A stretch of DNA of 64,000 nucleotides from Bacillota bacterium. GTDB lineage: Bacteria > Bacillota_I > Bacilli_A > RF39 > UBA660. Under the pieces are notes generated by a model that was given only the letters and a program-made list of their open reading frames with translations, searched no databases and had not been told where the DNA came from. The stretch is taken from positions 7,796 through 71,795 of the forward strand of contig DOEC01000035.1 of the NCBI GenBank assembly GCA_003524085.1. Reading direction: 5' to 3'. Position numbers and translations under genes: made by a program. Below are positions 5,257 through 43,809 of the stretch, one piece after another. Position 1 is the first letter of the stretch. Each line of letters starts with the position of its first letter.

Positions 5257-5314
5257 CAAAAATTGGTAGATTAATAATTAACATTTAATAAATACTATAA
5301 CTAGGTGAATACAA

Positions 5315-5713
5315 ATGAAAAAAATATTATTAACTCTATCAATTTTTTTAATGATTTTTATATCTCCAAACACCAGCGCAATAGAAGATTATAGTCTATA
5401 TAAAGAAAGTGTATATGTTTTAAAATATAACACTCTAAACTCTAAAGACTTGCCTTCTTTATTAAAAGACACTAATAGCCTAGTCTTAGAAATAGACGCA
5501 AACATCAAAGGAAAAACCTACACTTATAGAATACTTTCAAGTGACATAAGTGTAACTACTGAAAAACTAATAAAGAAAATAACTAAAGACATAACAGATA
5601 AAGAAACCATAACCGATATAGAAATCAACGGAGTAAAAATAACAAAACTCACTCTAAAAATCACTAATGAAGACTATAACACACTAAAAGAAAGAAGTAA
5701 AATCTATGAGTGA
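5315..5713 (+). CDS. secreted protein with signal peptide, unknown function
   Basis: MKKILLTLSIFLMIFISPNTSA signal-like N-terminus. Confidence 0.6.
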   Translation: MKKILLTLSIFLMIFISPNTSAIEDYSLYKESVYVLKYNTLNSKDLPSLLKDTNSLVLEIDANIKGKTYTYRILSSDISVTTEKLIKKITKDITDKETITDIEINGVKITKLTLKITNEDYNTLKERSKIYE

Positions 5714-6830
5714 TTTAAAAAAGTACAATATATTTATATTCATAACAAGCTTTGCTAAATTACTAGTTGAAATCTTTATTCCACTTATACTTTATAATAT
5801 GTCCTTCACTATAAAAGAAATAATTCTATTTTTAATACTTAAATATTCTTTTTGTCTACTCTTCATCCCAGTAGGTTACTTTATAGGAAAAAAATATTCA
5901 GTCTCAACACTAATGATACTAAGTTCCATAATTTTTAGTATAACCTATATATACTTATCACAAATAAACAAAAACTTAACATCCCTTATAATACTAAGCA
6001 TCCTTTACTCAAGTTACTTAATGTTCTATTGGCTTGGAAGACACACGTATGGCCTAAGTATAATTGAAGACAAAAAAACAACAGATAACGTTAGCTTATA
6101 CAATATATTCACTATTCTAGGTGGATTATTTTCTCCGTTCATCGGTTCATACATTATTGAAAAAACAAGCACACTTACTCTTTCAACAATCGTACTAGTA
6201 CTTATGATAATCAGCATAATTCCCCTTACCAAAATTAAAAAAATCAAACTTAACCCTAACACTCAAATAAAACATATTATAAAGTCTTTCCCAAAAACAA
6301 ACTACATATTTAATACTCTTGACCAATTAAGATACATCTTATACACAGTACTACCTTTATGGATATACATTAACATAAAAAGCAAATATTCATATATAGG
6401 AATTCTAAACATCATAACTGGTCTAGGTAGCATTATCTACATATACTTACTATCTAAAAAGATGGACAAAAACAAAAAAGACTACCTAAGTTTATCACTA
6501 CTTATAATGGGTATAATCTACTTATTAAAAATAACCATCACATCTAATCTAGCATACCTAATAATAACATTATTTGAAGGAATTACAAAGTCTAGTTTAG
6601 ACACTATTACACTGAGAAACACATACGTATACCAAAAAAACTATTGTATTACTTCATACATAATATTTACAGAAATAATAAACAACATTGCAAGAACACT
6701 ATTTCTAATAATTTTCTATATATTTAACGTACCACTAACAACAATGTTACTAATATGTATTCTAGGAATATTCTTAAACGTATTTGTAAAATATGATGAT
6801 GGAAAATATGGTTACTCTCTTGTTAAATAA
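5706..6830 (+). CDS. polytopic membrane protein (10-12 TM), possibly MFS-type transporter
   Basis: 374 aa, almost entirely hydrophobic helices; start overlaps previous stop. Confidence 0.55.
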   Translation: MSDLKKYNIFIFITSFAKLLVEIFIPLILYNMSFTIKEIILFLILKYSFCLLFIPVGYFIGKKYSVSTLMILSSIIFSITYIYLSQINKNLTSLIILSILYSSYLMFYWLGRHTYGLSIIEDKKTTDNVSLYNIFTILGGLFSPFIGSYIIEKTSTLTLSTIVLVLMIISIIPLTKIKKIKLNPNTQIKHIIKSFPKTNYIFNTLDQLRYILYTVLPLWIYINIKSKYSYIGILNIITGLGSIIYIYLLSKKMDKNKKDYLSLSLLIMGIIYLLKITITSNLAYLIITLFEGITKSSLDTITLRNTYVYQKNYCITSYIIFTEIINNIARTLFLIIFYIFNVPLTTMLLICILGIFLNVFVKYDDGKYGYSLVK

Positions 6831-14435: not shown

Positions 14436-17400
14436 ATGTTCGAAAAAGAAAATGATTATGTAACTAATAGAAAAATGTATCTTGATAATAAAGATTACAT
14501 TCTTAAAAGATTTGCTTACTCTGATATCATACGTGGTGAATTAATAACTAGCTATAGTATAGAAGTTACTGATGAACATGACTATCCTGATAAAGGTTAC
14601 ACGGACTACTGTTTTGAAACTAATTCATACTATTATGATGTTGGTAAATATAGACAAGTAATAAGAAAAAATGATGCTGGAGAAATATTATCCTACTCTT
14701 GTAACTGTAGTAACTTTAGAGATACTAATTCATGTGTTCACTTAGTAGGATGTTTTCATAACTATGCATTTTTAATTTTCTATGCTAAACCAGATCCATT
14801 AAAAATATCAAACAATATTTTAGACATACTTTCAAAATCAAATAAACCTGTAGTTAAAAAAGAAGTATTCTTATCAGTTGACATACTATCCTCTTCAATA
14901 GACTTTTATTATGATGTTAAAATAAAAGTAGGTATTAATAAGATGTACTCATACAATAACAAACAAAACCAATTCTTACAGGCGTCAAATAGAAAAGATG
15001 ACGAGTTCACTTTTGGTAAAGATTTTACTTTTGATTTTAACAGCAATTACTTTAGTGAAAAAGCTACAAAAGTATTAAAATACATAAATAGATTTCATCC
15101 TGACTTAAATAAAAACAATTTTGATGATAAAGAAATAAATAATTTTCTAGATTTATTAAAAGAACAAGATTACCCTTTCACATATAATAATCATAACATA
15201 ACTAAAATACTAGAAGAATTTCCTCTTGAAAGTACAGTAGAAGAAATGGATCAAGATAACTACATAGTTAACTTTGATTTAAAAGACTACAAACTAATTA
15301 GTTATAACTATGCATACAATAATTCTAATATTTACTATTTATCTAACAAAGACATATCACTATTATTTTTATTATATAAACAAAATATGTCTAGTTTAAT
15401 CATACCCAAAAATAGATTAAAAGACTTCTCTAGTGGTGTACTTCCAATAATAAAAAAACATGTAGAAGTAAATGAAAACCTAAAAGATAAAATACAAATA
15501 ATTAATGAACCAGATGTATCTTTATACTTTGACTTAAATAAAGATAATGTTATATGTAATATAAAACTAAAATATAATGAAGAAATAGATTACTTTGATA
15601 ACAAAGCTAATGTACTAAGAGATGTGGAATTTGAAACCAATTTAATTAGTTACTTACAAACTTTTGGTTTTATCATAAATAATAAAAAGATTATAATGAA
15701 TGATTTAGATAAAATAGTATATTTAATAGATGAAGGACTAAACTTAATAAGTAAAAAATATCCTGTATACACTACTGAAAACTTTAAAAAACTAGGTTTA
15801 AAGAAAACTAAAGTATCTAGTACATTCTCGATAGGAAAAGATAACATATTAAGTTATGATTTTAATTTAGATGGAATAAGTAATGATGATATAGTAAATA
15901 TATTTAAAAGCATTAAAGAAAAAAAGAAATACTATAAGTTAAGTAATAATCAAATAGTAGATCTAGAAGACAGTGATTTAAATGAATTAATGAATCTAAC
16001 TGAAGAACTAGATATTACTGACGAAGACATAATAAATGCTAAAGGTTCAGTTATGAAATACAGGGCTATTTATTTAGACAGTATTAAAGATAGCAAGTAT
16101 TCTATTATTAAAACAGACAACTTATTTAAAGAGTTTATTAATAACTTTCATCAATATAAAGATGCTAATTTAACTCTTACAGCTGATGAGTTAAAAACAC
16201 TCAGAGACTACCAAATAACCGGTGTAAAATGGCTTTATAACTTAGATAAATGTTCTTTTGGTGGAATACTAGCTGATGAAATGGGTCTTGGTAAAACAAT
16301 ACAACTAATCTACTACATAAAACAAATGTTAAAAGAAGATAATACTTACAAATTCCTAATAGTAGTACCAACTAGCTTACTTTATAACTGGGATAGAGAG
16401 TTTGAAAAATTTGCACCTGATATTCCAGTAAAAATAGTAAATGGTATAAAAACCAAAAGACAAGACTTAATAGAAAATACAAACAAAAATGTCTACATTA
16501 CAACCTATGGTCTATTAAGAGAAGACTTAGAGTACTATGAAAAAATGCACTATCATGCTGTTATATTAGATGAAGCTCAAAACATAAAAAATCCACTAGC
16601 TGGCACAACAAAAGCATGTAAAAGCATGAAAGCAGATGTTAAGTTTGCATTAACAGGAACTCCTATAGAAAACTCAGCTGTTGAATTATGGAGTATATTT
16701 GACTATATCATGCCAGGATACTTATCTAAATATGATAAATTCACTAGTAAATACAAAGTAAAAGAATTTGATGAAGACACAAACAAACTACTTGATAGTT
16801 TATCTAAACAAATAAGTCCATTTATATTAAGAAGAAAAAAGAAAGACGTTATAAAAGAACTTCCTGAAAAAATAGAAACAAATATATTTATAGAGTTAGG
16901 TGATGAACAAAAGAAAATCTATGTAGCAGAACTAAACAAAGTAAAAGAAGCTATTGAAGAAGCCCTAAATGATGGTGGAATGTCTAAAGTTAGATTTATG
17001 ATACTTCCCCTTCTTACGAAACTAAGGCAAATTTGTATAGATCCTAAAATAGTATATAGTGATTATACTAGTGGGTCTAATAAAATAGATAGATTCTTAA
17101 GTGTAATAGAAGAAGTAACAAATAATGGCCATAAAGTACTAGTGTTCACTTCATTTAGAACAGCACTTAACTTAGTAAAAGATAAGCTTGATAGTATTGG
17201 TATAAAGTCATACCAAATAGATGGGTCAGTATCTAGTAAAGAAAGACAAACTAGAGTAGATAACTTTAATAATAATGATGACGTTAAAGTATTCTTAATA
17301 ATGCTAAAAAGTGGTGGAACTGGACTTAACTTAGCTTCTGCTGATATAGTTATTCACCTAGATTTATGGTGGAATCCACAAGCTGAAAACCAAGCAACAG

Positions 17401-17612
17401 ACCGTGCACATAGAATTGGACAAAAAAACACTGTTGAAGTAATAAAATTAGTTTCAAAAGGGACAATTGAAGAAAAAGTACTTGATTTACAAGAAAAGAA
17501 AAAAGAACTAAGTAATAGACTAATAGACTCAAATAACATGGATCAAAACATCATCAGTGAACTAACAGAAAAAGACATCAAAAACTTACTTGCTTTTGAA
17601 AACAAAGACTAA
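14436..17612 (+). CDS. SNF2/SWI2-family helicase with N-terminal SWIM zinc finger
   Basis: SWIM CNCSNFRDTNSCVHLVGCFH; SNF2 motifs LRDYQITGVKWL, ADEMGLGKT, DEAQNIKN; helicase C motifs GGTGLNLASADIV and TDRAHRIGQ. Confidence 0.9.
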   Translation: MFEKENDYVTNRKMYLDNKDYILKRFAYSDIIRGELITSYSIEVTDEHDYPDKGYTDYCFETNSYYYDVGKYRQVIRKNDAGEILSYSCNCSNFRDTNSCVHLVGCFHNYAFLIFYAKPDPLKISNNILDILSKSNKPVVKKEVFLSVDILSSSIDFYYDVKIKVGINKMYSYNNKQNQFLQASNRKDDEFTFGKDFTFDFNSNYFSEKATKVLKYINRFHPDLNKNNFDDKEINNFLDLLKEQDYPFTYNNHNITKILEEFPLESTVEEMDQDNYIVNFDLKDYKLISYNYAYNNSNIYYLSNKDISLLFLLYKQNMSSLIIPKNRLKDFSSGVLPIIKKHVEVNENLKDKIQIINEPDVSLYFDLNKDNVICNIKLKYNEEIDYFDNKANVLRDVEFETNLISYLQTFGFIINNKKIIMNDLDKIVYLIDEGLNLISKKYPVYTTENFKKLGLKKTKVSSTFSIGKDNILSYDFNLDGISNDDIVNIFKSIKEKKKYYKLSNNQIVDLEDSDLNELMNLTEELDITDEDIINAKGSVMKYRAIYLDSIKDSKYSIIKTDNLFKEFINNFHQYKDANLTLTADELKTLRDYQITGVKWLYNLDKCSFGGILADEMGLGKTIQLIYYIKQMLKEDNTYKFLIVVPTSLLYNWDREFEKFAPDIPVKIVNGIKTKRQDLIENTNKNVYITTYGLLREDLEYYEKMHYHAVILDEAQNIKNPLAGTTKACKSMKADVKFALTGTPIENSAVELWSIFDYIMPGYLSKYDKFTSKYKVKEFDEDTNKLLDSLSKQISPFILRRKKKDVIKELPEKIETNIFIELGDEQKKIYVAELNKVKEAIEEALNDGGMSKVRFMILPLLTKLRQICIDPKIVYSDYTSGSNKIDRFLSVIEEVTNNGHKVLVFTSFRTALNLVKDKLDSIGIKSYQIDGSVSSKERQTRVDNFNNNDDVKVFLIMLKSGGTGLNLASADIVIHLDLWWNPQAENQATDRAHRIGQKNTVEVIKLVSKGTIEEKVLDLQEKKKELSNRLIDSNNMDQNIISELTEKDIKNLLAFENKD

Positions 17613-17640
17613 ACTACGCAGAGATGCGTAGTTTTTATTT
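17613..17640 (+). terminator. rho-independent terminator ACTACGCA-GAGA-TGCGTAGT + TTTTTATTT
   Basis: read directly from the sequence. Confidence 0.7.
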
Positions 17641-17879
17641 AAATTTAACTAAATTAGTAAATATTTCACCATTGAAATAATTTATTATCTATGGTAGAAT
17701 AAGTAAAAAAATGATAATGAAAGGAAAAATAAATGAGTGAAAAAGAAATATTAGAGTAAATTAGTTTTATTGAGAGAAAAGGATAATCAACAATTTTTAG
17801 AAATAACAAAAGAAGAACAACAAGTTTTAAGTAGAGATGAAAAAGTAAAAATATCTCGGTATTAACTGAAAGACTAAAC

Positions 17880-18308
17880 TTGATGGATTATATATATGAT
17901 AAACTAATAACGTATACAACTAATGTGTTTAAATATTATGGTGGTATTGGTAAAAAAATACTTAAAAATTATGAAACTCAAACAAAAGATATAATTGAAA
18001 AAGGCGAAAATAAGATTATAGCAGCAACTGGATCTTACATAGGAGAGGGGTTTGATGACTCAAAACTTGATGTGTTATTTCTAACCATGCCTATATCTGA
18101 TCAAACGAGAGTTACACAGTATGCTGGAAGATTACATAGAAGAGATGATAACAAAAAAGAGATTTTAATTTATGATTATGTAGACGACAACTTTGAAAAA
18201 ACTAGAAATATGTTTTTTAAAAGGAAAAAGACATATGAAAAATTAGGATACGAAATATTGAATGAAGAGGAGCAAGTTAGACATATCATAAACATAAAAG
18301 TAAGATAA
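17880..18308 (+). pseudogene. C-terminal helicase-domain fragment of an SF2 (DEAD/DEAH, res-subunit-like) helicase; upstream part degraded
   Basis: motifs ATGSYIGEGFD, DVLFLTMP, QYAGRLHR (helicase motifs V/VI) in a 142-aa ORF; 240 bp upstream contains only short stop-interrupted fragments. Confidence 0.5.
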
Positions 18309-18398
18309 ATTGTCACAACTAGGAAGTTGTTACTATTCTCTTTCTAAGTGACTATTGATAATTTTTTTGATAAAATATCTTTAGGTGATGTGAAATAT

Positions 18399-19307
18399 AT
18401 GAAATGTTTATTATTAGGTAATGGTCTTAACATAGCTAATCATAATGATTATTTAATGATAGATAATGTTAGAACAAGATTCTTATCTATCTTAAAATCA
18501 AAATATAAGCTATTTGAGAAATGTTTATACATAGATAGTTTAAACTATGAAGATTTAAAAGATAGTATTTTAAAAGATAATAATGGAATTGAACAATTAT
18601 CCGGAAACTTGTTTGATTACTTTTACAACTTATTAAAAATAAATAATAAATTTTGTTGGAATGATTGTTTTCGATTAATTGAACTTATCGCTTCTATTTC
18701 AATCGAATCCTTATTCATTGTTGATGGAAAATATAAAAAACCAATAATTTCGATTGATTACGAGAATAAAATAAAAAAATATGATAAAGTTTTTACGCTT
18801 AATTACGTTGAAGATTGGGATAAAGAAAATAAATGCATTTATTTACATGGTAACATTAATAATTACTTATCTAACTATAGAGGACAAAATATTATTTCAA
18901 ATATTTTAAAATATTCATTACATTTGGAAGCAATCCCTACAAATTATTTAGAATTAGATTTTAGTGACATTATATTTATTCCGGATAATAAAATTGTTGA
19001 TAAACATAGTTATGTGGGTGAAGGATTATTTTGTGGTAAGTGTGGATTACCTGTTTATCCTTCAGATGACCTTTTTCTTGATAGTGGTAAAGGTGATATA
19101 TATGAAAAACTCAACCATGTTGAATATATAGACATTTTCGGAATGTCTCCATATGGTGATAAATCTCTAATAGATAAAATATCGTATATTAAAAACGTTA
19201 CTATTTATGTTCATAATATGAATAGTGACGAAATAAAAGAATGGAAAAAATATTTGTCAAATGCAAAATTTAAAGATTCAAAAGAATTTATAACTGCAAA
19301 TAATTAA
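18399..19307 (+). CDS. hypothetical protein, possibly AbiH-like abortive-infection family
   Basis: N-terminus MKCLLLGNGLNIANHNDY resembles the AbiH signature (hh-GNG-F/L-D/N-hA); RBS AGGTGATG 8 nt before ATG 18399. Confidence 0.4.
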   Translation: MKCLLLGNGLNIANHNDYLMIDNVRTRFLSILKSKYKLFEKCLYIDSLNYEDLKDSILKDNNGIEQLSGNLFDYFYNLLKINNKFCWNDCFRLIELIASISIESLFIVDGKYKKPIISIDYENKIKKYDKVFTLNYVEDWDKENKCIYLHGNINNYLSNYRGQNIISNILKYSLHLEAIPTNYLELDFSDIIFIPDNKIVDKHSYVGEGLFCGKCGLPVYPSDDLFLDSGKGDIYEKLNHVEYIDIFGMSPYGDKSLIDKISYIKNVTIYVHNMNSDEIKEWKKYLSNAKFKDSKEFITANN

Positions 19308-19414
19308 AAACAGTGTTTTGTATTTGTATGAAAAATAATACTATAATACATAAAAAAGAAAATATTTCATTTATTAAAATGAAATGCACTAACTTTTTGA
19401 ACGGAGGAAATAAA

Positions 19415-21388
19415 ATGGATTTAATAAATATAATAGATGATTATTTAAAAAATAAATTAATTAACTATGCAATTTTAATTAAAGGAGAATGGGGAACAGG
19501 CAAAACATTTTTTGTTAAAAAAAATATAATTAAAAGATATAACAACGCATTATATATATCTTTATATGGTATTTCTTCTATAGACAAATTAAGTGAAAAA
19601 ATATATTTAGAAATAATAAAATCTAAGGCAACCACAAATTTTATAAGTAAGTTTTTTCGAAAATTGCATGAAAAAATACTTTTTAAAGTATTGTTCTTTA
19701 TACCTATTCTGATTTTTAAATTACTCAAATTCTTATATGAACTATTATTTAAACTAATTTGGATTGTTACATATAATTTAGTGTATTTAAAGTTTAATAT
19801 TAATATTTCATCACTAAATAAAAAAGATTTTTATGGAATCTTAAAACTATATGAAAAATTAGATAAATTTATTTTGGTAATAGATGATTTAGAAAGATGC
19901 AATATACCAATAGAGGAAATTATGGGATTTATTAATGATTTTGTTGAACACAATAATGTAAAATGTATATTAGTTGCTAATGAAAATGAAATTTATAAAA
20001 CTCAATCTGAAAACCTTGAATTAAAAATATTAACTGTTGCTAATGATAAAATAGAATTCTACGACAATGATAGACGTAGTAATAAAACAAATGAAAAGTT
20101 AAATAGTAATGATTTGAAAAATAGAATAGATTATTTGTACAATGCAAATAACAAATATAAAATAATTAAAGAAAAAGTTATTGGTAAAGAATTTGTATTT
20201 ATTCCAAAATTGGAAAATATATATGATAATCTCGCATTTAAATACAAAGACGAAGAACAATTCTATGATATATTGAATAATACAAAATTATCAGTTATTG
20301 ATACAATGAGTTTAAATAATTTTAATAATATTAGGACATTAGATTTTTATTTTGATAATTTTTATCATATATATAAATATATAAATAATTTTGTAAAAGA
20401 ATGCAGGATATCAGAACAATTCATTTATAGTAATATATGTAAAAGCATTATAAATGGATGCATTTGTATGAAAAAAGGATATGAATTACGATGCCTGCCA
20501 AGTGGTAAGAGATTTGATTATGTATCATATGATGAGAATAAAACTTCAGTATTTCAATCAGATATGTTTTTAAGTTTTGATTTTGTTAATGAATATCTAA
20601 TATATAATTACATAGAAAAAAGTAATATAGAAGAAACCTTAAAGTTATTCGCTAATTCAAATTGTGATAAATTATCAGAAGATGATCCATTTAATCTTTT
20701 AAATGAATATTGGTATTATTCATCTGATGAGATTAATAAAATTTTATGTGATATATATAACAATATTGATTCTAACAAGTATAATCCATCACTATATAGA
20801 CTAATAATAAAAAAAATATCATCTTTAGAGGCTATGGATTATAATGACCCAATTATAAATCGAATAATTGAAATAATAAGATTAAAAGTTTCATTGGAAG
20901 ATAATATTGAAATTGATGATTATGAATTATTTCCAAATGATTTAGCATCACATATTTATTCAAACCATATTCAACAGATTAATAATAATACTAAAAATAA
21001 TTTAAAAATTAAAAACAATAACATTTTTGACAAGATTTTTGAAAAAGACGATTGGGCAGTCGAATTACATAAATATGTTGAAAAATCAAAATCACAAATA
21101 CTAACAGAAAATAATTTTTTTTCGTTAATAGGTTATAAGAAAATAATAGAAAAATTACTTAATTTAAACATTAAAAATGTATATTATTTTAAGTATACAC
21201 TAGACCATATATATGGGGTTGTAAAATTAAAAGATTCTAATACTGCTGAATTAGATTGTTTAAAAAGATTTAAAAAAGAACTGAATAAACAATTAAAGAA
21301 TATGAATATAAAAGATCCTATGGTAAAATGTCCATTTAAAATACTTTTAGAAAAAATTGATAGTATGTTATCAGTATCAAAAGACTAA
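19415..21388 (+). CDS. KAP-family P-loop NTPase with TM helices inserted in the NTPase domain
   Basis: Walker A GEWGTGKTFF; Walker B/KAP signature LVIDDLERC; hydrophobic helices ILFKVLFFIPILIFKLL / LFKLIWIVTYNLVYL between A and B; RBS GGAGGA before ATG 19415. Confidence 0.85.
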   Translation: MDLINIIDDYLKNKLINYAILIKGEWGTGKTFFVKKNIIKRYNNALYISLYGISSIDKLSEKIYLEIIKSKATTNFISKFFRKLHEKILFKVLFFIPILIFKLLKFLYELLFKLIWIVTYNLVYLKFNINISSLNKKDFYGILKLYEKLDKFILVIDDLERCNIPIEEIMGFINDFVEHNNVKCILVANENEIYKTQSENLELKILTVANDKIEFYDNDRRSNKTNEKLNSNDLKNRIDYLYNANNKYKIIKEKVIGKEFVFIPKLENIYDNLAFKYKDEEQFYDILNNTKLSVIDTMSLNNFNNIRTLDFYFDNFYHIYKYINNFVKECRISEQFIYSNICKSIINGCICMKKGYELRCLPSGKRFDYVSYDENKTSVFQSDMFLSFDFVNEYLIYNYIEKSNIEETLKLFANSNCDKLSEDDPFNLLNEYWYYSSDEINKILCDIYNNIDSNKYNPSLYRLIIKKISSLEAMDYNDPIINRIIEIIRLKVSLEDNIEIDDYELFPNDLASHIYSNHIQQINNNTKNNLKIKNNNIFDKIFEKDDWAVELHKYVEKSKSQILTENNFFSLIGYKKIIEKLLNLNIKNVYYFKYTLDHIYGVVKLKDSNTAELDCLKRFKKELNKQLKNMNIKDPMVKCPFKILLEKIDSMLSVSKD

Positions 21389-21826
21389 TCATAGATTTTG
21401 TTAAATATATAAATAATAAAAATAACGGAAACTAATGTGGACAAAATTCTGCTTTTATATAAATGGTTTAACATAATTCTGTGCTTTATAATAAAAATAG
21501 CTATCAAATCAGTATGCTTATTTATAAATCTACTTATAATATTTCTATCTTCAATAGATGTTACATTTTTCACAAACAGTCCAATTTATCACAAATGCCA
21601 TCATATTTATTATATTCGGCTTAATTTGTTGCTTCAGAACAATTACACGTTGATTCTAAAAAAGTATATTTAACCTTATATTGTTTAAAAATAATTTTTT
21701 CAAATCTTAAATGCTTTATACTATTACTCCAACATATATTAAAACAGAATAGAATGACAATTACATAAAAGAGTAGAATGTACCCAAATTTTAAATTAGA
21801 TATTTAGAATAATACAATCTTATATC

Positions 21827-21855
21827 TTGTAAATCTTTAATTTCTAAGGTATAAT
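21827..21855 (+). promoter_or_regulatory. sigma-A promoter TTGTAA-17nt-TATAAT for the 21889-23294 operon
   Basis: read directly from the sequence; preceded by 500 bp of AT-rich non-coding DNA. Confidence 0.5.
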
Positions 21856-21888
21856 ATCGTACAAATAAAATTTAAGGAGTGATTAGTT

Positions 21889-22506
21889 TTGAGAAAAGAA
21901 ACCAAAAATATTGTAGATAATTATTATATGAAAGAAGAAAAAATGTTATTTTTAAAGTTTGCCGAAATAATTGATAATAATATTAAAGATATTGAAAAGC
22001 ATAAAATAATCTGGGAATACGATCAGAAACTTGGAGGATTGGGTGGCTATGCTGCACCACTAAATGTAATAATTAATCCCTTTAAAACTTATGGAGACTA
22101 CAGAAATGTATTTAGAAGCTTACAATATTCCAGAAATGGTATGTTTCTTCATGCTAGACCAAGATTTATCATAATTGATGCAGCACTTAGTTTAGAAACT
22201 TTAGTTAAACTCCTTTTATCAAAAAATATTTTTTTAAAATATTCAGCTAACAAAAAGGAATTAGGAAAAAACGTTGAAGAATTACACAACAGAAAAATTA
22301 TTGACGAAGATTTTTATAAAAGATTAAATATTTGGAAAAAAATATTAAATTATGCTAAGCATGATACAGATCCGGAGTGTGATTATACCTTTGATTACGA
22401 GGATGCAGTTATATTTTATTTTGAAACCAGAGTGCTAGGTAACAAAATATTAAAAATACTAAATCATTATACAAGTGGAAAATTTTATAAGATTAAAATA
22501 GATTAA
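21889..22506 (+). CDS. hypothetical 205-aa protein, first gene of TIR operon
   Basis: TTG start 9 nt after AAGGAG; no recognizable domain; an R-x5-H (RNGMFLH) motif is present, but assigning it to HEPN is speculative. Confidence 0.55.
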   Translation: MRKETKNIVDNYYMKEEKMLFLKFAEIIDNNIKDIEKHKIIWEYDQKLGGLGGYAAPLNVIINPFKTYGDYRNVFRSLQYSRNGMFLHARPRFIIIDAALSLETLVKLLLSKNIFLKYSANKKELGKNVEELHNRKIIDEDFYKRLNIWKKILNYAKHDTDPECDYTFDYEDAVIFYFETRVLGNKILKILNHYTSGKFYKIKID

Positions 22507-22532
22507 ATATTAATATGAAAAGGAGTCTAAAA

Positions 22533-23294
22533 ATGAAAGATAAATATTCTTATATGGGCAATTATGGTATTGTAAAAATAATAGGAGGTAAATTCAAAGG
22601 TAAATTTGGATATTACGACGATGATGACGTTGATTTTGATAATGTTAGTAAATCTGTAGTTTATTTCGGAGAAATGTTTGATAATTCGGTATATCACTAT
22701 ATCAAACATGAATATATTACAAACGATTTCACGATTGAAGATTTGAAAAAGAGACAAATGTTTCTTCAACACAAATTATGTAGTAAGATTTCTATTTCAA
22801 AAAGATTAGAATTATTAGAAGAGAAAAATTTGATTGAATCTGAAATTAACTTAAGAACTTTAAATTATATTAATTCAAACAAGTTAGAAAATAAAAAGGT
22901 ATTTCTATCACATTCTTCAATTGATAAAAATATTGTGACTTCCATTGCTTTGGATTTACAAGAACGTGGAGTTACAACTTGGCTAGATGCGTATGATATT
23001 TTACCAGGAGAATCAATAATGTCAAAAATTAACAAAGGTTTAGAAGAATGTAAATATGTACTATTATTTTTATCAAAAAATTCTGTGAATTCTAATTGGG
23101 TTACAAAGGAATGGGAAACAGTATTATGGGACGAGATTAATTCAGGAAAGGTAAAAGTTATTCCAGTTAAACTCGAAGAATGTGAGATACCCAAAATATT
23201 ACAAACAAAAAAATATATCGATTTTACTGAAGGTTATAATATAGGACTTTATGAAATTACAAAAACTATTAAAGCATATGAAAAAATACAATAA
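22533..23294 (+). CDS. TIR-domain protein (unknown ~125-aa N-terminal domain + C-terminal TIR)
   Basis: C-terminal KVFLSHSSIDKN...WLDAYDILPG...SKNSVNSNWVTKEWE is a canonical bacterial TIR with conserved Glu; RBS AGGAG 7 nt before ATG 22533. Confidence 0.85.
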   Translation: MKDKYSYMGNYGIVKIIGGKFKGKFGYYDDDDVDFDNVSKSVVYFGEMFDNSVYHYIKHEYITNDFTIEDLKKRQMFLQHKLCSKISISKRLELLEEKNLIESEINLRTLNYINSNKLENKKVFLSHSSIDKNIVTSIALDLQERGVTTWLDAYDILPGESIMSKINKGLEECKYVLLFLSKNSVNSNWVTKEWETVLWDEINSGKVKVIPVKLEECEIPKILQTKKYIDFTEGYNIGLYEITKTIKAYEKIQ

Positions 23295-23300
23295 TTAAAT

Positions 23301-23328
23301 AAGGTACCATTAATAAGACTGGTACCTT
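23301..23328. terminator. perfect 9-bp hairpin AAGGTACCA-loop-TGGTACCTT after TIR gene (bidirectional)
   Basis: read directly from the sequence. Confidence 0.55.
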
Positions 23329-23795
23329 AAAATAAAAGATTATTTTAGTATATTTTAAATGGCGATTTTCAATTTATCAATTATCTGGTTTAACTCACCT
23401 AAAGCAATGGCAAGTAGTACAACTCTAATTACCAACGGAATTACAATCGTTAATAAAAATATATAAAAAATTTTTGTTATCTTTCCAATTTCTAACCTTA
23501 TGTAATAAAGATTTTCTTCAATTGTGCTATCTTCAGCCTTCACTTGATTAATTTTGTCTTCTATTCTAGAATATTCCTGGTATCAATGCCACTAACATTA
23601 TAATTGATATTATACCTATTATTTCACCTAATCCTATATTTATACCTACTTTCTATTGTTAGTTTAACATAAAAAAGATTAGTTTTATTAATAAACTGAA
23701 ATCATTAACTCTAACTTTACAGAAAAACACTTTTTATAAAATTGACATCTATGTTTTCACATGCTACAATTAACATAGATAGCAGGTGAAGTAAA

Positions 23796-24497
23796 TTGAA
23801 AAAATTAAAAAGATTATTAATAATTATTATAGTAACTGCATTTTTATATTTCTATTACAATGAAGAGACCACTAATTTATTAAAAAAAATCTTTCCAGAT
23901 AGTTATTCAACTGAAGTAACTGAAGTAGGAGAGGACAAGGGTAGTTACATAATTATAAACAATAACGAGCCAGATTTTAACGATGAAGATAAGACTACAG
24001 ACACATTTGAAAAGTATAGTAAACTTGATTCTCTAGGACGTGCAGGCGTTGCCTATGCAAATATAAGTGTTGACTTAATGCCTACAACTGAAAGAGAAAG
24101 TATAGGTATGATTAAACCAACTGGCTGGCACACTATAAAATATGACATAGTACCAGGAAAATACTTATATAATCGTTGCCACTTAATTGGTTACCAACTA
24201 ACCGGGGAAAATAAAAATGAACTAAACTTAATAACTTGCACTAGACAAATGAATACAGTAGGAATGCTGGACTGGGAGAGTATGGTAGCAAACTATATCA
24301 AGGAAACAAACAACAACGTCCTTTATAGGGTAACTCCAAAATATGAAAGTGATAACTTACTTGCAAGTGGCGTTCAAATAGAAGCGTACTCTATCCAAGA
24401 TAACGGAAAAGGCATAAAGTTCAATATATTTGTTAAAAATATACAAGACGGAATAGAAATAGACTATAAAACTGGTGATAGTAAATTAAAAGAATAA
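23796..24497 (+). CDS. membrane-anchored DNA/RNA non-specific endonuclease (EndA/NucA-like)
   Basis: N-terminal TM; active-site region NRCHLIGYQLTGEN matches the (D/N)RGHLI..QL.G motif; promoter TTGACA-17-TACAAT upstream; TTG start. Confidence 0.75.
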   Translation: MKKLKRLLIIIIVTAFLYFYYNEETTNLLKKIFPDSYSTEVTEVGEDKGSYIIINNNEPDFNDEDKTTDTFEKYSKLDSLGRAGVAYANISVDLMPTTERESIGMIKPTGWHTIKYDIVPGKYLYNRCHLIGYQLTGENKNELNLITCTRQMNTVGMLDWESMVANYIKETNNNVLYRVTPKYESDNLLASGVQIEAYSIQDNGKGIKFNIFVKNIQDGIEIDYKTGDSKLKE

Positions 24498-24548
24498 AAG
24501 AATATTTTTAAATTAAAGTTTTCCTTTAACTAAAAATACTCTTTTTTA

Positions 24549-25184
24549 TTACTTTAATATTGTTTTTAAGTAACTTACAATTTCATGAACATCTAAATTA
24601 ACAAACTCAATATCATAAAATATGTCATTATAAGTAAATCTAACCATCATCGCAGGTACACTATAACTATCACTAAAATATTCTAGAATTTTAACATCAT
24701 GTTCAGCAATAATAGAAGATTTCATTTCTTCCTTTGGGACAGCAATACATCTAGGCCTTCCGTTGCTATTTAAATTACTTGTATAATAAATATCTATTAT
24801 CTTTTCTCCATTTTTAAATATTACTTGATTAGCAAATTTTTCATTATTAACCATGTCAGATAACTCGTAATTGTGTTCTAAAACATAATCGTTAGGCATT
24901 GGGGTTGCCTTAACATTTAGAGTTTCCAAGTTTTCTCTATTATACCCAACGTCATAGGCAGTGTAGTTTAACTTTGCTTTCTCACTTAATTCATTGATAA
25001 CTATAATATCATTTTCATACTTATACACAACATCACTAGTCTTCTTGTTAAGAACTAACATCACTGATAAAATAACAACCAGCGTAGATGGCACCAAAAA
25101 CAAATAACTAACCTTCTTTCTAACAATATTATCGTATATCTTATCTTTGCTTATCTTCCCCGTAAACATACTCTTCAAATTCAT
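24549..25184 (-). CDS. putative anti-sigma factor (single-TM protein co-transcribed with ECF sigma)
   Basis: immediately downstream of sigma gene; N-terminal cytoplasmic segment then TM YLFLVPSTLVVILSVMLVL. Confidence 0.55.
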   Translation of the reverse strand: MNLKSMFTGKISKDKIYDNIVRKKVSYLFLVPSTLVVILSVMLVLNKKTSDVVYKYENDIIVINELSEKAKLNYTAYDVGYNRENLETLNVKATPMPNDYVLEHNYELSDMVNNEKFANQVIFKNGEKIIDIYYTSNLNSNGRPRCIAVPKEEMKSSIIAEHDVKILEYFSDSYSVPAMMVRFTYNDIFYDIEFVNLDVHEIVSYLKTILK

Positions 25185-25187
25185 AAA

Positions 25188-25703
25188 TCATTCCTCCTTT
25201 AAGTATTTATTAAGTTCCTTTAATGTCCTATAAAGATAGTGTTTCACATTGCTTTCCGTGATATTTAAAAACTCACTTATCTCTTTAAGTGTTAACTCTT
25301 CATAATAATATAAATAGAATATCTTTGATATAACACTCTTCTTCTTTTTTAAATAATTCCACACCTTATCAGTATCATATCTATTAGAAACTGTCTCTTC
25401 TAAGTTAAACTCATCACGTATATTCTCTATACCCGAGTCTTCTTCATTCTTAAAATAATCAACTATCTTATCTTTAAACTTAAATCTATAATAGTCATTA
25501 ATCTTATGATTAGCTATTCCAAATATATAAGATTTATCAACACTCACATTCTTTTTTAACTTCTTATACGCATCAGTATATATATTTTGTAAAATATCTT
25601 CCACATCAGCAATATTTCTGCATTTTAATATAACATACCTTTTAATCTCATTAAAAGTCTCATTATAAATACTATCAAATTCTTTTAGTGCTTGACTAGT
25701 CAT
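25188..25703 (-). CDS. ECF-type sigma-70 family sigma factor
   Basis: region 2-like DILQNIYTDAYKK and region 4 HTH LTLKEISEFLNITESNVKHYLYRTLKELN. Confidence 0.8.
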   Translation of the reverse strand: MTSQALKEFDSIYNETFNEIKRYVILKCRNIADVEDILQNIYTDAYKKLKKNVSVDKSYIFGIANHKINDYYRFKFKDKIVDYFKNEEDSGIENIRDEFNLEETVSNRYDTDKVWNYLKKKKSVISKIFYLYYYEELTLKEISEFLNITESNVKHYLYRTLKELNKYLKEE

Positions 25704-25888
25704 TTTATCACACCCACTTATACAGTCGTAAATTATTACTATTTAGTTCCATTTTTATATTTTTTATTATACTAAAGAATAACTTTTAATACAACTTAAC
25801 TATAACTTAAAGTAATAACACCCATAAATAATTACTTCTTTTCTTGTATTCATTTTTATTATATAATGTAACTAGAGGAAGTGATTAT

Positions 25889-26854
25889 ATGTATAAATCT
25901 AATGATAGTGTAGAAATTGCAAAGTTAATGAGTAGATTTAATTATGACGAAAGTAGAACTAGTGAAGTGCTAGAAAAATATGATAAGCTAACTAAATTAG
26001 TAGACTTACATACCCATACATCTTATAGTGATGGAATATTTAGTCCTATTGAAGTATTAGACTTAGCCAAAAAAGAAAATGTTGGCCTTTTATCCATAAC
26101 AGATCATGATACAGTTGAAGGAATTAGAAAGTACAAAAGTGTTTTACATAACGATAAAGACATAAAATTTGTTGACGGAATAGAGCTATCTATAAAAGTG
26201 AACCACGGTAGAATGCATATACTTGGTTACGGAATTGACATAGAAAATAAACTATTAAATGACAAGCTAGCATGGATTAAAGAAAACAAAATCAATTCAT
26301 TTTTAACAATTTATGAAGAAGTCAAAAGAGAGTACAATCTAGTATTCAGTAATAAAAAGTTAGCTGATTTAATAAAAAGCGTTTACACTGAAGGCCACAC
26401 AATTAACAGAGTAGACATTGCAAAAATGTGTGTGGAAGAATCTTATGCCCTTGACATAAAAGATGCGTTTAACAAATACCTAATAAGTGCCTACGAAAAT
26501 ACTAGAAAATATAGAAAAGGCATAAACTATGAAGAAGCGATAAACTTAATTAACAACTCTGGCGGAATAAGCGTACTTGCCCATCCAAAAAGCCTAGAAC
26601 TTAGCCAAAAAGAATTTTTAATTTTATTAAAAGACCTAATTAAATGTGGACTAAACGGCATTGAAGTATATCATTCTAGTCACACAAAAGAAGAAATGAT
26701 GTTTTATAAAGGTATATGCTTAGAAAATGGCTTATTCATGACTGGTGGAAGTGACTTTCACGGAAAAAATAAACCCGATGTGTTACTAGCTCATGGCATT
26801 AACGACAACCTTAACATTAGAAGGCATCAGTTAAAACTACCAGATAAAATGTAA
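25889..26854 (+). CDS. PHP-domain metal-dependent phosphoesterase
   Basis: VDLHTHTSYSDG ... SITDHDT ... AHP motifs; RBS GAGGAAGTGA before ATG 25889. Confidence 0.8.
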   Translation: MYKSNDSVEIAKLMSRFNYDESRTSEVLEKYDKLTKLVDLHTHTSYSDGIFSPIEVLDLAKKENVGLLSITDHDTVEGIRKYKSVLHNDKDIKFVDGIELSIKVNHGRMHILGYGIDIENKLLNDKLAWIKENKINSFLTIYEEVKREYNLVFSNKKLADLIKSVYTEGHTINRVDIAKMCVEESYALDIKDAFNKYLISAYENTRKYRKGINYEEAINLINNSGGISVLAHPKSLELSQKEFLILLKDLIKCGLNGIEVYHSSHTKEEMMFYKGICLENGLFMTGGSDFHGKNKPDVLLAHGINDNLNIRRHQLKLPDKM

Positions 26855-37037: not shown

Positions 37038-37766
37038 ATGCTTAAACTCCTATTTAGTAAAGAATATATATTTTTATGGCTAATAGTTATCTTAATACCA
37101 ATTATCCAAAAGAAAGTAATAGGTTTCTTTGGTGAATTTTGGGTTAAACTAGAACTTAAAAAATTAAAGAAAGACTACAAAGTTTTAAATAACGTAATTA
37201 TAAGAACTATAGACAATTCCACTCATCAAATAGATCATATAGTAGTTTCTAAATATAGCATATTTGTAATAGAAACTAAGCAGATAAATGGGTATATTAA
37301 AGGTAACGATTACGACAAAAACTGGACTGTCAAAAGAGGAAAAAACACTTACTATATCAATAACCCAGTTCATCAAAACTATGGACATATAAAAGCTTTG
37401 TCTGAAGTCTTAGGAATAAACACAGATAAATTCATTTCAATTGTATGCATTTCTAGTCAAGCTAAAGTTAGAGTTAACTCAAAGTTTGTAGTTAGAATTT
37501 ATATGCTCGTTAAATATATTAAAAGTTATACAAACGAATTACTTTCAAATTATATAGAAGTGTATAACACTTTAGTTAGTAGAAATATTAAAGGCTACAC
37601 TAATTCTAGAATGCATGTTAAAAGCGTAAAAGAAATAAAGAAAGTAACAGCTAATGACCTAATTAAAAAATGCCCACTTTGCGGCGGAGAACTTGTTAAC
37701 AGACAAAGCAAGTATGGTAGTTTCATAGGCTGTTCTAATTACCCTAGATGCAAGTTCAAAAAGTAA
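37038..37766 (+). CDS. NERD-domain protein with C-terminal topoisomerase-type zinc ribbon
   Basis: NERD core HQIDHIVVSKYSIFVIETKQINGYIKG; CPLCGGELVNRQSKYGSFIGCSNYPRCKF. Confidence 0.75.
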   Translation: MLKLLFSKEYIFLWLIVILIPIIQKKVIGFFGEFWVKLELKKLKKDYKVLNNVIIRTIDNSTHQIDHIVVSKYSIFVIETKQINGYIKGNDYDKNWTVKRGKNTYYINNPVHQNYGHIKALSEVLGINTDKFISIVCISSQAKVRVNSKFVVRIYMLVKYIKSYTNELLSNYIEVYNTLVSRNIKGYTNSRMHVKSVKEIKKVTANDLIKKCPLCGGELVNRQSKYGSFIGCSNYPRCKFKK

Positions 37767-37770
37767 CCAG

Positions 37771-37796
37771 AAGTCTCTTTTCTTAGAGACTTTTTT
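37771..37796 (+). terminator. rho-independent terminator AAGTCTCT-loop-AGAGACTT + TTTT
   Basis: read directly from the sequence. Confidence 0.6.
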
Positions 37797-37863
37797 GAAT
37801 TAACTATAGGATTTTTAAGAAAAGTATAGTATAATATTAGACAAGAGAAGGTGGTTTATATTT

Positions 37864-38130
37864 ATGACTGCTATTATTTTTATAGGTTTCTTAATATTCT
37901 GTTATATTTTTAGAGACTCATATAAAAACAAGCAAGAACCAAAAGAAGAAAAGCCTAAAAAGAAAAACATATCTCCTTATTCTGAAGAAGAAATGGACAA
38001 GTACAACCTAGAAGAATGGCAAAAAGATTTAGTAAGAGAAGGAAGATTTGCACCTTGGAGTTTTAAAAAAAAATCAACTTATAGTGGAAAGTTAAGTGAC
38101 GGACAATATTATAAAGATGACGATGTTTAA
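37864..38130 (+). CDS. small protein with N-terminal TM and charged C-terminal tail
   Basis: RBS AAGGTGG; MTAIIFIGFLIFCYIF. Confidence 0.5.
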   Translation: MTAIIFIGFLIFCYIFRDSYKNKQEPKEEKPKKKNISPYSEEEMDKYNLEEWQKDLVREGRFAPWSFKKKSTYSGKLSDGQYYKDDDV

Positions 38131-38160
38131 TAGATAATTATATATGTGAGGTAAGTTAAA

Positions 38161-39054
38161 ATGATTATTAAAGATAATAGAAAATTAAGACAAAAAGATT
38201 TTAAAAATGAAAAAGAATTACAAACATACTTTGAAGAAAATCTAAATAAAATTTTAGGATACAAATTTGTAAAAACTGAATTTATAGTTGGAAATTATAG
38301 AATAGATTCTTTGGCATTTGATGAAGAAACTAAGGCATTCAGAATTATTGAGTATAAAAATGTTAAAAATCATAGTTTAGTAGATCAGGGCTATACTTAT
38401 TTAAAATTATTGTTAGAAAGAAAAGCCGATTTTGTGCTTAAATTTAATGAAGTATATAATTTAAATTATAAATTATCTGATATTGACTGGAGTCAGTCTA
38501 GAATAATATTCGTTTCGCCAACTTATACTGACTACCAGTTGAATGCTACTGATTTTAAAAATATACCTGTTGACTTAGTTAAAGTCACTAGATATGAAGA
38601 AAATATAGTTGACATAGAATTTATAAAAAAGACAAGTAATGTTAAGATAGATGAAATTAATGATAAACCCGCTCAAAAAGATGTTAATAAAGAAATTAAA
38701 GTATATACTGAAGAAGATCATTTATGTAACTTATCTGAAGAAATTAAAGCGATTTATGAAAATTTGAAAAATAAAATATTAGAACTTGATGACATTGATG
38801 TAGATGTGAAAAAATATTATATTGCATTCAAGGGAAGAAGAAATATAGTTGATATAGAATTCACTCAAAGCAAAATTAGAGTAGATATTAATATGAAAAA
38901 AGGGACTTTGAACGATCCTTTAAATATAACCAAAGATATTTCTAGTATTGGACATTGGGGTAATGGAGACTATAGAGTGGAGATAACAAAAGAAGAGGAA
39001 ATAGATAATGTTATTCCATTAATTAGACAGTCGCTAAAAGTAAATAAAAAATAA
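38161..39054 (+). CDS. NucS/DUF91-like PD-(D/E)xK nuclease-fold protein with C-terminal extension
   Basis: GNYRIDSLAFDEETKAFRIIEYK (D..E.K) preceded by the ELQTYFEENLNKILG pattern typical of RecB-like NucS C-terminal domain. Confidence 0.6.
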   Translation: MIIKDNRKLRQKDFKNEKELQTYFEENLNKILGYKFVKTEFIVGNYRIDSLAFDEETKAFRIIEYKNVKNHSLVDQGYTYLKLLLERKADFVLKFNEVYNLNYKLSDIDWSQSRIIFVSPTYTDYQLNATDFKNIPVDLVKVTRYEENIVDIEFIKKTSNVKIDEINDKPAQKDVNKEIKVYTEEDHLCNLSEEIKAIYENLKNKILELDDIDVDVKKYYIAFKGRRNIVDIEFTQSKIRVDINMKKGTLNDPLNITKDISSIGHWGNGDYRVEITKEEEIDNVIPLIRQSLKVNKK

Positions 39055-39070
39055 GGAAGGAATGATTAAA

Positions 39071-39220
39071 ATGAATAAGAAAAACGTACTAAATAAAATA
39101 CATGGGGGGGGGGTATTTAAATATATAAATATATCTAGTTTTTGTGTACCCTTTTTTGGAGTTAATAGGCAAAGCTGTGAAAATCTTTGTCTTTTTTGTG
39201 AGTTAAATGGAGAGATATAA
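39071..39220 (+). CDS. 49-codon upstream ORF whose TAA stop abuts the hsdM ATG (TAAATG); contains G10 tract and CxxxCxxC
   Basis: RBS AAGGAAGG; reading through GGGGGGGGGG as GGG run; ends ..SCENLCLFCELNGEI*. Confidence 0.3.
   Translation: MNKKNVLNKIHGGGVFKYINISSFCVPFFGVNRQSCENLCLFCELNGEI
39104..39113 (+). repeat. G10 homopolymeric tract (candidate slipped-strand phase-variation site)
   Basis: only long G/C homopolymer in the window, in a ~28% GC background. Confidence 0.6.
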
Positions 39221-43164: not shown

Positions 43165-43170
43165 TGTGTA

Positions 43171-43803: not shown

Positions 43804-43809
43804 TAATTA

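Follow-up and report, generated by a model that had tools for sequence, protein, structure and literature searches.

Organisation of the locus

We analysed a stretch of 64,000 nucleotides (nt) from contig DOEC01000035.1 of a Bacillota bacterium (assembly GCA_003524085.1), hereafter the window, and within it two co-oriented neighbouring genes, hereafter gene 1 and gene 2. Gene 1 encodes a protein of 205 amino acids (aa) with a predicted HEPN fold, while gene 2 encodes a TIR-domain protein of 253 aa. An initial annotation, made from the DNA letters and their open reading frames (ORFs), had read the two as one operon and as a candidate TIR-based defence system in which gene 1 supplies the partner. 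Do these genes form a single system, or do two independent defence genes lie side by side? The comparison presented here favours the second reading.

Roughly 100 homologue clusters were found for gene 1 and roughly 100 for gene 2, and both are therefore genuine genes rather than chance ORFs. The TTG start proposed for gene 1 was borne out by an AAGGAG motif upstream, and the resulting N-terminus, MRKETK, agrees with the MRxET start of its homologues. Two starts are available for gene 2 (Table 1). The downstream ATG is the most likely one, because of its spacing from AAAGGAG and because the homologues of gene 2 are 250–257 aa long and all begin at the equivalent methionine. With this start, 26 nt separate gene 1 from gene 2. 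Genetic code 4, a candidate in view of the label Mycoplasma or Tenericutes given to some related metagenome-assembled genomes (MAGs), was ruled out, as code 11 leaves long housekeeping ORFs unbroken.

The 500-bp gap described upstream of gene 1 is real: positions 21389–21888, immediately 3' of a KAP-family NTPase gene, hold short ORFs and no long ones, and an Rfam scan of positions 17000–26000 found no RNA family. The signals assigned to the ends of the operon survived in part. A sigma-70-like promoter candidate does lie where it was reported, but in this AT-rich DNA such 10/12-type matches are common (33 seen in 2.6 kb, versus 22.8 expected from shuffled sequence), so that the match alone is not evidence and a function can be assigned from its position only. 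Genes 1 and 2 are probably co-transcribed from the promoter region upstream of gene 1. Likewise, the perfect 9-bp inverted repeat 3' of gene 2 exists, but bidirectional terminator is too strong a label for it: on the plus strand the hairpin is followed by AAAATAAAAG, which lacks a T-run, and a terminator scan did not call the hairpin at 23301–23328. By its sequence, the hairpin does not qualify as a canonical intrinsic terminator of this operon. A minus-strand ORF of 62 aa whose central part is hydrophobic (23355–23543) converges on it; at the place of this ORF an 84-aa gene is called in four loci of a sister lineage (L058–L061).

Table 1. Positions of the two genes, their domains and the neighbouring features in the window
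Feature	Position	Strand	Remarks
Gene 1, ORF	21889-22506	+	205 aa; TTG start; AAGGAG at 21875-21880, 8 nt upstream
Gene 1, residues 1-68	21889-22092	+	three N-terminal helices and conserved Gly-rich loop
Gene 1, HEPN core, residues 69-190	22093-22458	+	delimited by secondary structure and conservation
Gene 1, HEPN helix 1			residues 69-86
Gene 1, HEPN helix 2			residues 91-113; contains E103-x3-K107; E103 codon 22195-22197
Gene 1, helical insert between helices 2 and 3			residues 117-134
Gene 1, HEPN helix 3			residues 140-158; ends N154-Y-A-K157-H158; H158 codon 22360-22362
Gene 1, HEPN helix 4			residues 170-190; contains Y177, R181
Gene 2, ORF	22533-23294	+	253 aa; ATG at 22533, 7 nt after AAAGGAG
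Gene 2, alternative start	ATG 22515	+	would give 259 aa; start given in the ORF list
Gene 2, N-terminal module, residues 12-115	22566-22877	+	AlphaFold2 model
Gene 2, TIR domain, residues 121-253	22893-23291	+	Pfam TIR_2, Foldseek, profile versus PDB
Gene 2, catalytic-type Glu, E193	codon 23109-23111	+	E199 in 259-aa numbering; SNWVTKEWE context
Promoter candidate, sigma-70-like	21827-21855	+	TTGTAA-17-TATAAT; 10/12 matches; 5' of gene 1
Inverted repeat, 9 bp	23301-23309 / 23320-23328	.	AAGGTACCA / TGGTACCTT; 10-nt loop; possible transcript-end hairpin
319-aa protein and 691-aa KAP-family P-loop NTPase	18348-21388	+	neighbouring defence candidate; no family match for the 319-aa protein
Endonuclease_NS_2 (non-specific DNA/RNA endonuclease)	23796-24497	+	Pfam 3.7e-26

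Gene 1 founds a family with a predicted HEPN fold

Gene 1 had been described as a protein without recognizable domain. At the level of sequence this description stands. No model in Pfam, NCBIfam, PADLOC or PHROGs reached threshold on gene 1, and its profile gave no above-threshold family match among PDB sequences. The signals closest to a known family are DUF4145 (PF13643; E 0.026, 15 bits, under the gathering threshold of 23.1 bits), which aligns residues 117–161 to profile positions 29–73, and a sub-threshold PADLOC match to the C-terminus of PDC-S06 (E 0.0019). Across 88 members of the gene-1 family, Pfam returned only two weak DUF4145 and two weak HEPN_RiboL-PSP matches. At the level of structure, in contrast, the prediction gives gene 1 a fold of the HEPN superfamily. 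In comparisons with known structures, whose figures are unlabelled, AF0298 (2hsb) gave 11.2, the sacsin HEPN domain 9.7, TT1696 9.5, the HEPN toxins of HEPN-MNT pairs 7.4–8.2, LsoA and RnlA 8.0 and 7.6, Csm6 and AbiA 7.7 each, and HepS 6.0. We conclude from the model that gene 1 represents a previously unannotated HEPN family. Among 1.84 billion proteins, the family has 165 representatives at E<=1e-3; those of full length are stand-alone proteins of about 190–280 aa.

HEPN domains are marked by an acidic residue in helix 2, often as E-x3-[KR], by an insert between helices 2 and 3, and by an R-x4-6-H motif closing helix 3, in which a polar residue follows the arginine (PMC3710099). The helix-2 signature is present in gene 1, with E103 invariant in 88 of 88 sequences and K107 invariant in the 39 closer ones. 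The helix-3 motif is incomplete. H158 closes the helix and is near-invariant, and the polar residue is kept as N154, but position 153 is occupied by L, Y or M and no conserved arginine lies 4–6 residues before H158, giving the pattern [L/Y/M]153-N154-x-A-K157-H158. Such a state, in which the histidine is kept and the arginine lost, is listed for the c2405 and Parep1/8 HEPN families (PMC3710099). Six further residues (R76, Y80, R92, G126, Y177 and R181) are near-invariant down to about 17% identity, which speaks for a genuine active site or binding site. The R-x5-H motif noticed in the initial annotation exists as R82-x5-H88, but H88 is replaced by C, G, N or Y among homologues, so that this is not a functional motif; nor is it the helix-3 motif of HEPN domains.

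In front of the HEPN core, the Gly-rich loop reads IWEYDQxLGGLGGYAAPLNxxxNPFN, with I41, W42, G50, G52, G53, L58 and N63 invariant, and residues 1–68 may constitute a sensor or regulatory part. No SLOG, Macro, SAVED, CARF or STING sensor domain is recognisable in gene 1, and no helix-turn-helix (HTH) or other DNA-binding domain was detected in its family. The family, which carries a His-only motif, is mostly confined to uncultured gut Bacilli.

Gene 2 encodes a TIR protein with a distinct N-terminal module

The canonical TIR domain claimed for gene 2 was confirmed by both fold and profile. Pfam TIR_2 matches with 107 bits against a cut-off of 28 (1.2e-30; residues 129–240 in 259-aa numbering). 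Foldseek against the PDB retrieves the TIR domains of TRR-2, MAL, AbTir and SPARTA with template modelling (TM) scores on the target of 0.77–0.84, and nothing significant was found by Foldseek among viral structures. In a search of the PDB, the family profile matched BtTir (5e-19), Cat1 (1.6e-18), AbTir (1e-17) and, more weakly, SpbK (chain 9phb, 2.7e-7). The motif SxWxxxE is complete: S187, W189, V190 and the catalytic-type E193 are invariant across 39 homologues and align with the NWTEYEL and DWTNYEL segments of BtTir and AbTir, respectively. Among PADLOC models, PDC-S66 ranks first (4.2e-21; residues 78–218 versus positions 97–240 of a 282-position profile) and outscores the RT-TIR, SAVED-TIR, pAgo-TIR and ThsB models. 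A similar span, residues 76–218, is matched by phrog_15646 (1.4e-16).

What precedes the TIR domain is less familiar. An AlphaFold2 model based on 39 homologues (predicted local distance difference test 87.5, predicted TM score 0.86) consists of barrel, hairpin and TIR: residues 12–57 form a small four-stranded beta-barrel and residues 68–115 a helical hairpin. The N-terminal domain had been reported as unannotated, and no Foldseek match in the PDB covers residues 12–115. The barrel carries the motif G-x-V-K-I-x-x-G-K-x-K-G-x-x-G. Because KOW matches, all sub-threshold, fall at the barrel position in two of three diverse family members (E 0.1 and 0.018), we term it KOW-like with low confidence. 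Barrel and hairpin together are a candidate module for trigger sensing and oligomerisation. We infer that gene 2 is a TIR protein with an N-terminal module not previously described, and NAD hydrolase (NADase) activity is predicted for it.

Genes 1 and 2 mostly occur apart

The initial annotation cast gene 1 as the dedicated sensor or effector partner of a two-gene TIR system, and had named two observations that together would speak against it: gene-1 homologues widely lacking TIR neighbours, and no phage or NADase phenotype. The first is the distribution that we found. Loci were assembled from GTDB (15), metagenomes (27), individual homologue look-ups and one plasmid; all 15 GTDB loci belong to MAGs of uncultured gut Bacilli, 'Tenericutes' or 'Mycoplasma'. 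Among the fetched loci, 56 show similarity to gene 1 by tblastn, and only six of these also show it to gene 2. Two of the six (L031 and L062) share 95–98% DNA identity with the window, and the other four are the sister-lineage loci L058–L061. Synonymous and non-synonymous counts of the window against L031 and L062 yielded too few differences to inform on selection. The 50 gene-1 loci outside the window's and the sister lineage have no TIR neighbour, so adjacency of gene 1 and a TIR gene is not conserved across unrelated genomes.

The reverse search gave the same picture. Full-length homologues of gene 2 (37–73% identity) were found at 17 loci in five unrelated contexts, and gene 1 accompanies none of them (0/17). 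The closest (73% identity, L022–25) follows a LysM amidase near serine recombinases. Homologues of 69% identity (L093–96) start 68 bp after a Fic gene, and those of 60% (L089–92) follow a LysM-domain protein or LysM amidase; upstream in L089 lie a serine recombinase, a 250-aa protein, a Bro-N/PDC-S13-type protein and DpnII-MboI. A variable chromosomal spot holds the homologues of 42% identity (L026–27). At 37% identity (L028–30, 5001–5765), gene 2 is a single gene between prfA (RF-1) and prmC, in a housekeeping operon context. The Fic genes of L093–L096 are 83–90% identical to those preceding gene 1 in L020, L033 and L035. The slot behind Fic can thus hold gene 1 and another gene, gene 1 with the next gene only beyond a 362-bp gap (L012, L035), or the TIR gene alone, a pattern of independent cassettes in a hotspot.

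The neighbours of gene 1 vary on both sides. Upstream lies an HTH-Fic gene (PADLOC SoFic/PDC-S04; about 20 loci, gap 7–9 bp), elsewhere a large serine recombinase (gap 73–75 bp, or 21 bp at a 31%-identical homologue), a PLD-helicase-DUF3427 gene (16 bp), a gene for a REase-ARP-like protein (21 bp) or, on an Exiguobacterium plasmid, a caspase-family gene (60 bp). Downstream we found genes for unannotated proteins of 256 aa (15 loci) and 424 aa (11 loci), DUF4238 (two loci), PDC-S13/Bro-N (one adjacent locus, L016) and a type I restriction-modification (R-M) operon (one locus, L098); at several loci the next gene is more than 300 bp away or only opposite-strand genes follow. These elements are shuffled, giving the arrangements Fic-gene1-256, Fic-gene1-424, recombinase-gene1-424 and recombinase-gene1-DUF4238. 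In L019, gene 1 has no same-strand neighbour, and in L097 an integrase is its only one.

Several of these neighbours deserve mention in their own right. The HTH-Fic gene (e.g. L004:5067–5993, L033, L037–L046) co-diverges with the gene-1 homologues, and the two could pair up as Fic (AMPylase) and HEPN in the way that MNT and HEPN do in toxin-antitoxin modules. The 424-aa family (L009:5640–6914) and the 256-aa family (L017:877–1647) have no Pfam or PADLOC match, and tblastn of both against plasmids returned nothing. Neither family was ever seen without gene 1, in a sample biased by having been fetched through gene 1; each is a candidate for a new defence gene or for a partner of gene 1. The possibility that the 256-aa protein 3' of gene 1 in L004 is a hidden TIR protein was ruled out. 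The window and L001 each have a 319-aa gene close to gene 1, but these two genes proved unrelated. Large serine recombinases lie directly upstream of gene-1 homologues of 58–61% and 31% identity (L009:3338–4927, L014:129–1586, L097:3558–4979), which suggests that integrative elements recurrently carry gene 1 as cargo near their integrase. The small contig L097, which carries such a recombinase with a gene-1 homologue, also encodes a ubiquitin-like conjugation-type defence set of Multi_ubiq, DUF6791-ThiF and BubE genes (L097:374–2097).

Gene 1 is absent from IMG/VR and from sequenced phages. The plasmid collection gave one distant match, WP_114167312.1 (33% identity, E 2e-12), which is the sole match in an annotated record of a cultured organism. 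It lies on the Exiguobacterium mexicanum plasmid NZ_CP040675.1 (L099, 4375–6483), where the caspase-family gene WP_167491710.1 is located 60 bp upstream of it.

A decayed pair in the sister lineage and a defence hotspot

The intact pair is restricted to the window's lineage, where three sampled relatives (the window, L031 and L062) carry it. In the sister lineage, L058–L061 are homologous to the window through a 142-aa ORF (17984–18266), and homology resumes inside gene 1 at 21975. The DNA in between (18267–21974), which includes the block of the 319-aa protein and the KAP NTPase, has no match there; genes for DUF3368 and HTH-Peptidase_M78 proteins take its place. Nested deletions affect the pair itself. 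Positions 22342–22732 are gone from L060 and L061, and positions 22228–23067 from L058 and L059, where the remains form a chimeric protein of 153 aa (P0090). These deletions inactivate the pair in all four loci.

The surroundings of the pair support the earlier assignment of the locus to defence. Upstream, the KAP NTPase matches PADLOC PDC-S49 (5.6e-51) and phrog_4740 (1.4e-38). Downstream, the Endonuclease_NS_2 gene is a conserved right-hand neighbour of the hotspot, kept in L058–L062. The GC content across 18–22 kb is 0.205–0.244, versus roughly 0.21–0.36 in flanking kilobase windows. The PDC-S49 KAP NTPase, the nuclease, the lower GC content and a type I R-M/NERD cluster further on fit a defence island, and the deletions and replacements in the sister lineage fit a hotspot of fast cassette turnover.

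This second defence cluster spans 37038–46863. It opens with a NERD and Zn-ribbon protein (37038–37766) and a DUF5655 gene (38161–39054), and continues with a type I R-M operon of hsdM (39221–40792), hsdS (40785–42029) and hsdR (43810–46863). Between hsdS and hsdR lie an AAA_13-like gene of 386 aa (42004–43164) and a 210-aa gene (43171–43803). In the prr locus, the anticodon nuclease gene prrC is situated between hsdS and hsdR, a layout which we take the AAA_13-like insert of the window to recall.

Two cassettes or one system?

Since each gene occurs elsewhere without the other, we favour, with somewhat better than even confidence, the reading that the locus holds two autonomous single-gene abortive-infection cassettes side by side in a variable defence hotspot. 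By analogy, we propose gene 1 to be a solo HEPN RNase of the HepS/RAZR kind and gene 2 a solo TIR NADase of the SpbK kind, which would act independently of each other in vivo. In such a scheme, the N-terminal helices and Gly-rich loop of gene 1 would hold the HEPN protein, as a dimer or oligomer, in an inactive state that ends when a phage product binds. An RNase site could then be built from H158 together with E103, K107, K157 and a relocated arginine (R76, R92 or R181), and the activated protein would cleave tRNA or mRNA and stop translation. For gene 2, the KOW-like barrel and helical hairpin would dock onto a multimeric phage protein, and the TIR domains would be clustered by this docking and might hydrolyse NAD+ in composite active sites around E193.

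Several observations weigh against this reading. A gap of 26 nt that contains no terminator separates the two genes, and one plausible promoter is shared by both, which makes co-expression and functional cooperation possible. Two lineages inherited the pair as a block (gene-1 identity 89–99%), although it decayed in one of them. Elsewhere, too, the distance from gene 1 to an effector-like gene is nearly always 7–31 bp, and gene 1 and the 424-aa protein beside it diverge together across three contexts. RNase activity of gene 1 is not assured, because the canonical HEPN arginine is absent. Human-gut MAGs are over-represented among the sampled loci. Finally, fusions of DUF4145 to TIR domains have been recorded (Table 1 of PMC3710099).

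Could gene 1 instead be a generic accessory, that is, a HEPN-fold adaptor, co-effector or regulator that serves any neighbouring defence gene and is not an autonomous killer? BrxR-type regulators, which sit beside many different systems, and the HEPN-fold regulator MtlR offer analogies. We consider this unlikely. The partners of gene 1 share no common domain, and TIR, PDC-S13 and Fic cassettes each occur without it; in turn, gene 1 stands without a same-strand neighbour in L019 and with an integrase only in L097. Short gaps are weak evidence in genomes as compact as these, the family lacks a detectable HTH or other DNA-binding domain, and the strong conservation of its E, K, H and R residues speaks for catalysis.

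A genuine two-gene system, in which an NAD-derived signal made by the TIR protein activates the HEPN RNase, or in which the TIR is licensed by gene 1 once this has sensed the phage, strikes us as quite unlikely. It would account for the tight co-oriented arrangement behind a single promoter candidate, for the presence of the pair in the window, L031 and L062 and ancestrally in L058–L061, and it has a parallel in the reported DUF4145-type HEPN-TIR fusion (PMC3710099). Against it, the partner is missing from 50 gene-1 loci and from 17 full-length gene-2 loci, and gene-2 homologues with the same N-terminal domain stand in solo contexts. None of the nucleotide-sensor domains searched for is recognisable in gene 1, and both genes decayed in the sister lineage.

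The tight packing of gene 1 and the co-divergence of its 424-aa neighbour would also agree with a model in which the partner is conserved and the effectors are exchanged. Gene 1 would then be a HEPN-fold 'universal partner' of TIR, Fic, caspase, PLD-helicase, DUF4238, 256-aa and 424-aa proteins in modular two-gene immune systems, an idea to which we give rather little credence. If it held, the pair in the window would be the TIR-effector variant, and the His-only HEPN site a shared sensor or a second effector.

That gene 1 instead serves the maintenance or competition of mobile elements, as an addiction toxin (for instance one neutralised by Fic AMPylation, as MNT neutralises HEPN toxins) or in a function linked to serine recombinases, and not against phages, is very improbable, as the window has no recombinase or Fic homologue by tblastn and no such domain in 25 ORFs by Pfam, no conserved MNT or small antitoxin-like partner exists, and the family is absent from the viral and phage collections and nearly absent from plasmids.

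If the reading of two separate cassettes is correct, the locus contributes two variants of known one-gene strategies, solo-HEPN RNA cleavage and solo-TIR NAD+ depletion, from a poorly studied group of uncultured low-GC gut Bacilli. Neither strategy is new in kind. New are a compact HEPN family of about 165 representatives, which no library model reaches at threshold and which keeps the histidine and has lost the arginine, and the combination of a TIR domain with a KOW-like barrel, maybe a new trigger-recognition module, in a protein related to the candidate PDC-S66. The comparative data also map a shuffling hotspot composed of Fic or a serine recombinase, gene 1 and a variable gene, with at least two further unannotated candidate defence families. 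They also carry a caution: in compact AT-rich genomes, close, operon-like packing of genes is on its own no sign of a multi-gene system.

Comparison with known defence systems

The initial annotation had set the pair apart from Thoeris and CBASS, and this separation stands. We rejected Thoeris, CBASS and HEPN-MNT identities, since their defining partners are absent. No SIR2, SLOG, Macro or STING domain was found by Pfam in 15 neighbouring ORFs (5706–26854), in agreement with the partners reported as missing. Like Thoeris, the locus has a TIR protein in a defence island, and ThsB models match gene 2 weakly (best 8.1e-11). Unlike Thoeris, it has no ThsA-type partner among these 15 ORFs, ThsB_TIR scores 17.2 against the required 21.2 bits, gene 1 bears no ligand-sensor domain, and gene-2 homologues are solitary. 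From HEPN-MNT pairs, gene 1 differs by the absence of a canonical RNxxxH and by some 70 extra N-terminal residues, and no gene-1 locus has an MNT nucleotidyltransferase neighbour.

Can a lone HEPN protein constitute a complete abortive-infection system? Two precedents, HepS and RAZR, indicate that it can. HepS ('HEPN Solo', from the Gifsy-1 prophage) is a tetramer that is opened by a phage tail-tip protein and thereby becomes an anticodon nuclease (PMC13043305). RAZR, a ZnF-DUF4145 protein, is activated by assembling around phage portal rings (PMC13017515). No sequence similarity between HepS and gene 1 was detected, and HepS has a canonical R100-x4-H105, whereas gene 1 keeps N-x3-H with L, Y or M at the position of the arginine. 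The likeness to RAZR/PD-T7-4 and the DUF4145 family is that the only sequence-family signal of gene 1 is DUF4145, a divergent HEPN of single-gene defence. DUF4145 often adjoins R-M systems, as gene 1 does in L098. RAZR, however, needs R146 and H154, while gene 1 has neither a zinc finger nor a conserved arginine in the corresponding helix.

For gene 2, PDC-S66 and phrog_15646 are the best matches in the defence libraries and cover its helical linker and TIR domain. About half of each profile is matched, the barrel is left uncovered, and PDC-S66 is itself a computational candidate only. The closest characterised parallel in organisation is SpbK of Bacillus subtilis, a protein of 266 aa encoded on ICEBs1, in which an N-terminal sensing domain precedes a TIR domain with the catalytic E192 and which is sufficient alone (PMC12847820). 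Its activator is the phage portal YonE, a dodecamer, which acts by bringing the TIR domains into a cluster (PMC12847820). SpbK's N-terminal domain is a four-helix bundle, in contrast to the KOW-like barrel and helical hairpin of gene 2, and the TIR domain of gene 2 is closer to those of BtTir, AbTir and Cat1 than to that of SpbK, whose PADLOC model gives 4.5e-4. Both are proteins of about 260 aa carried as mobile-element cargo in Firmicutes, and both join an N-terminal domain through a linker to a C-terminal TIR domain. The catalytic glutamates, E192 and E193, occupy nearly the same position. It is this architecture, together with the solitary genomic occurrence of its homologues, that likens gene 2 to SpbK in its proposed mode of action.

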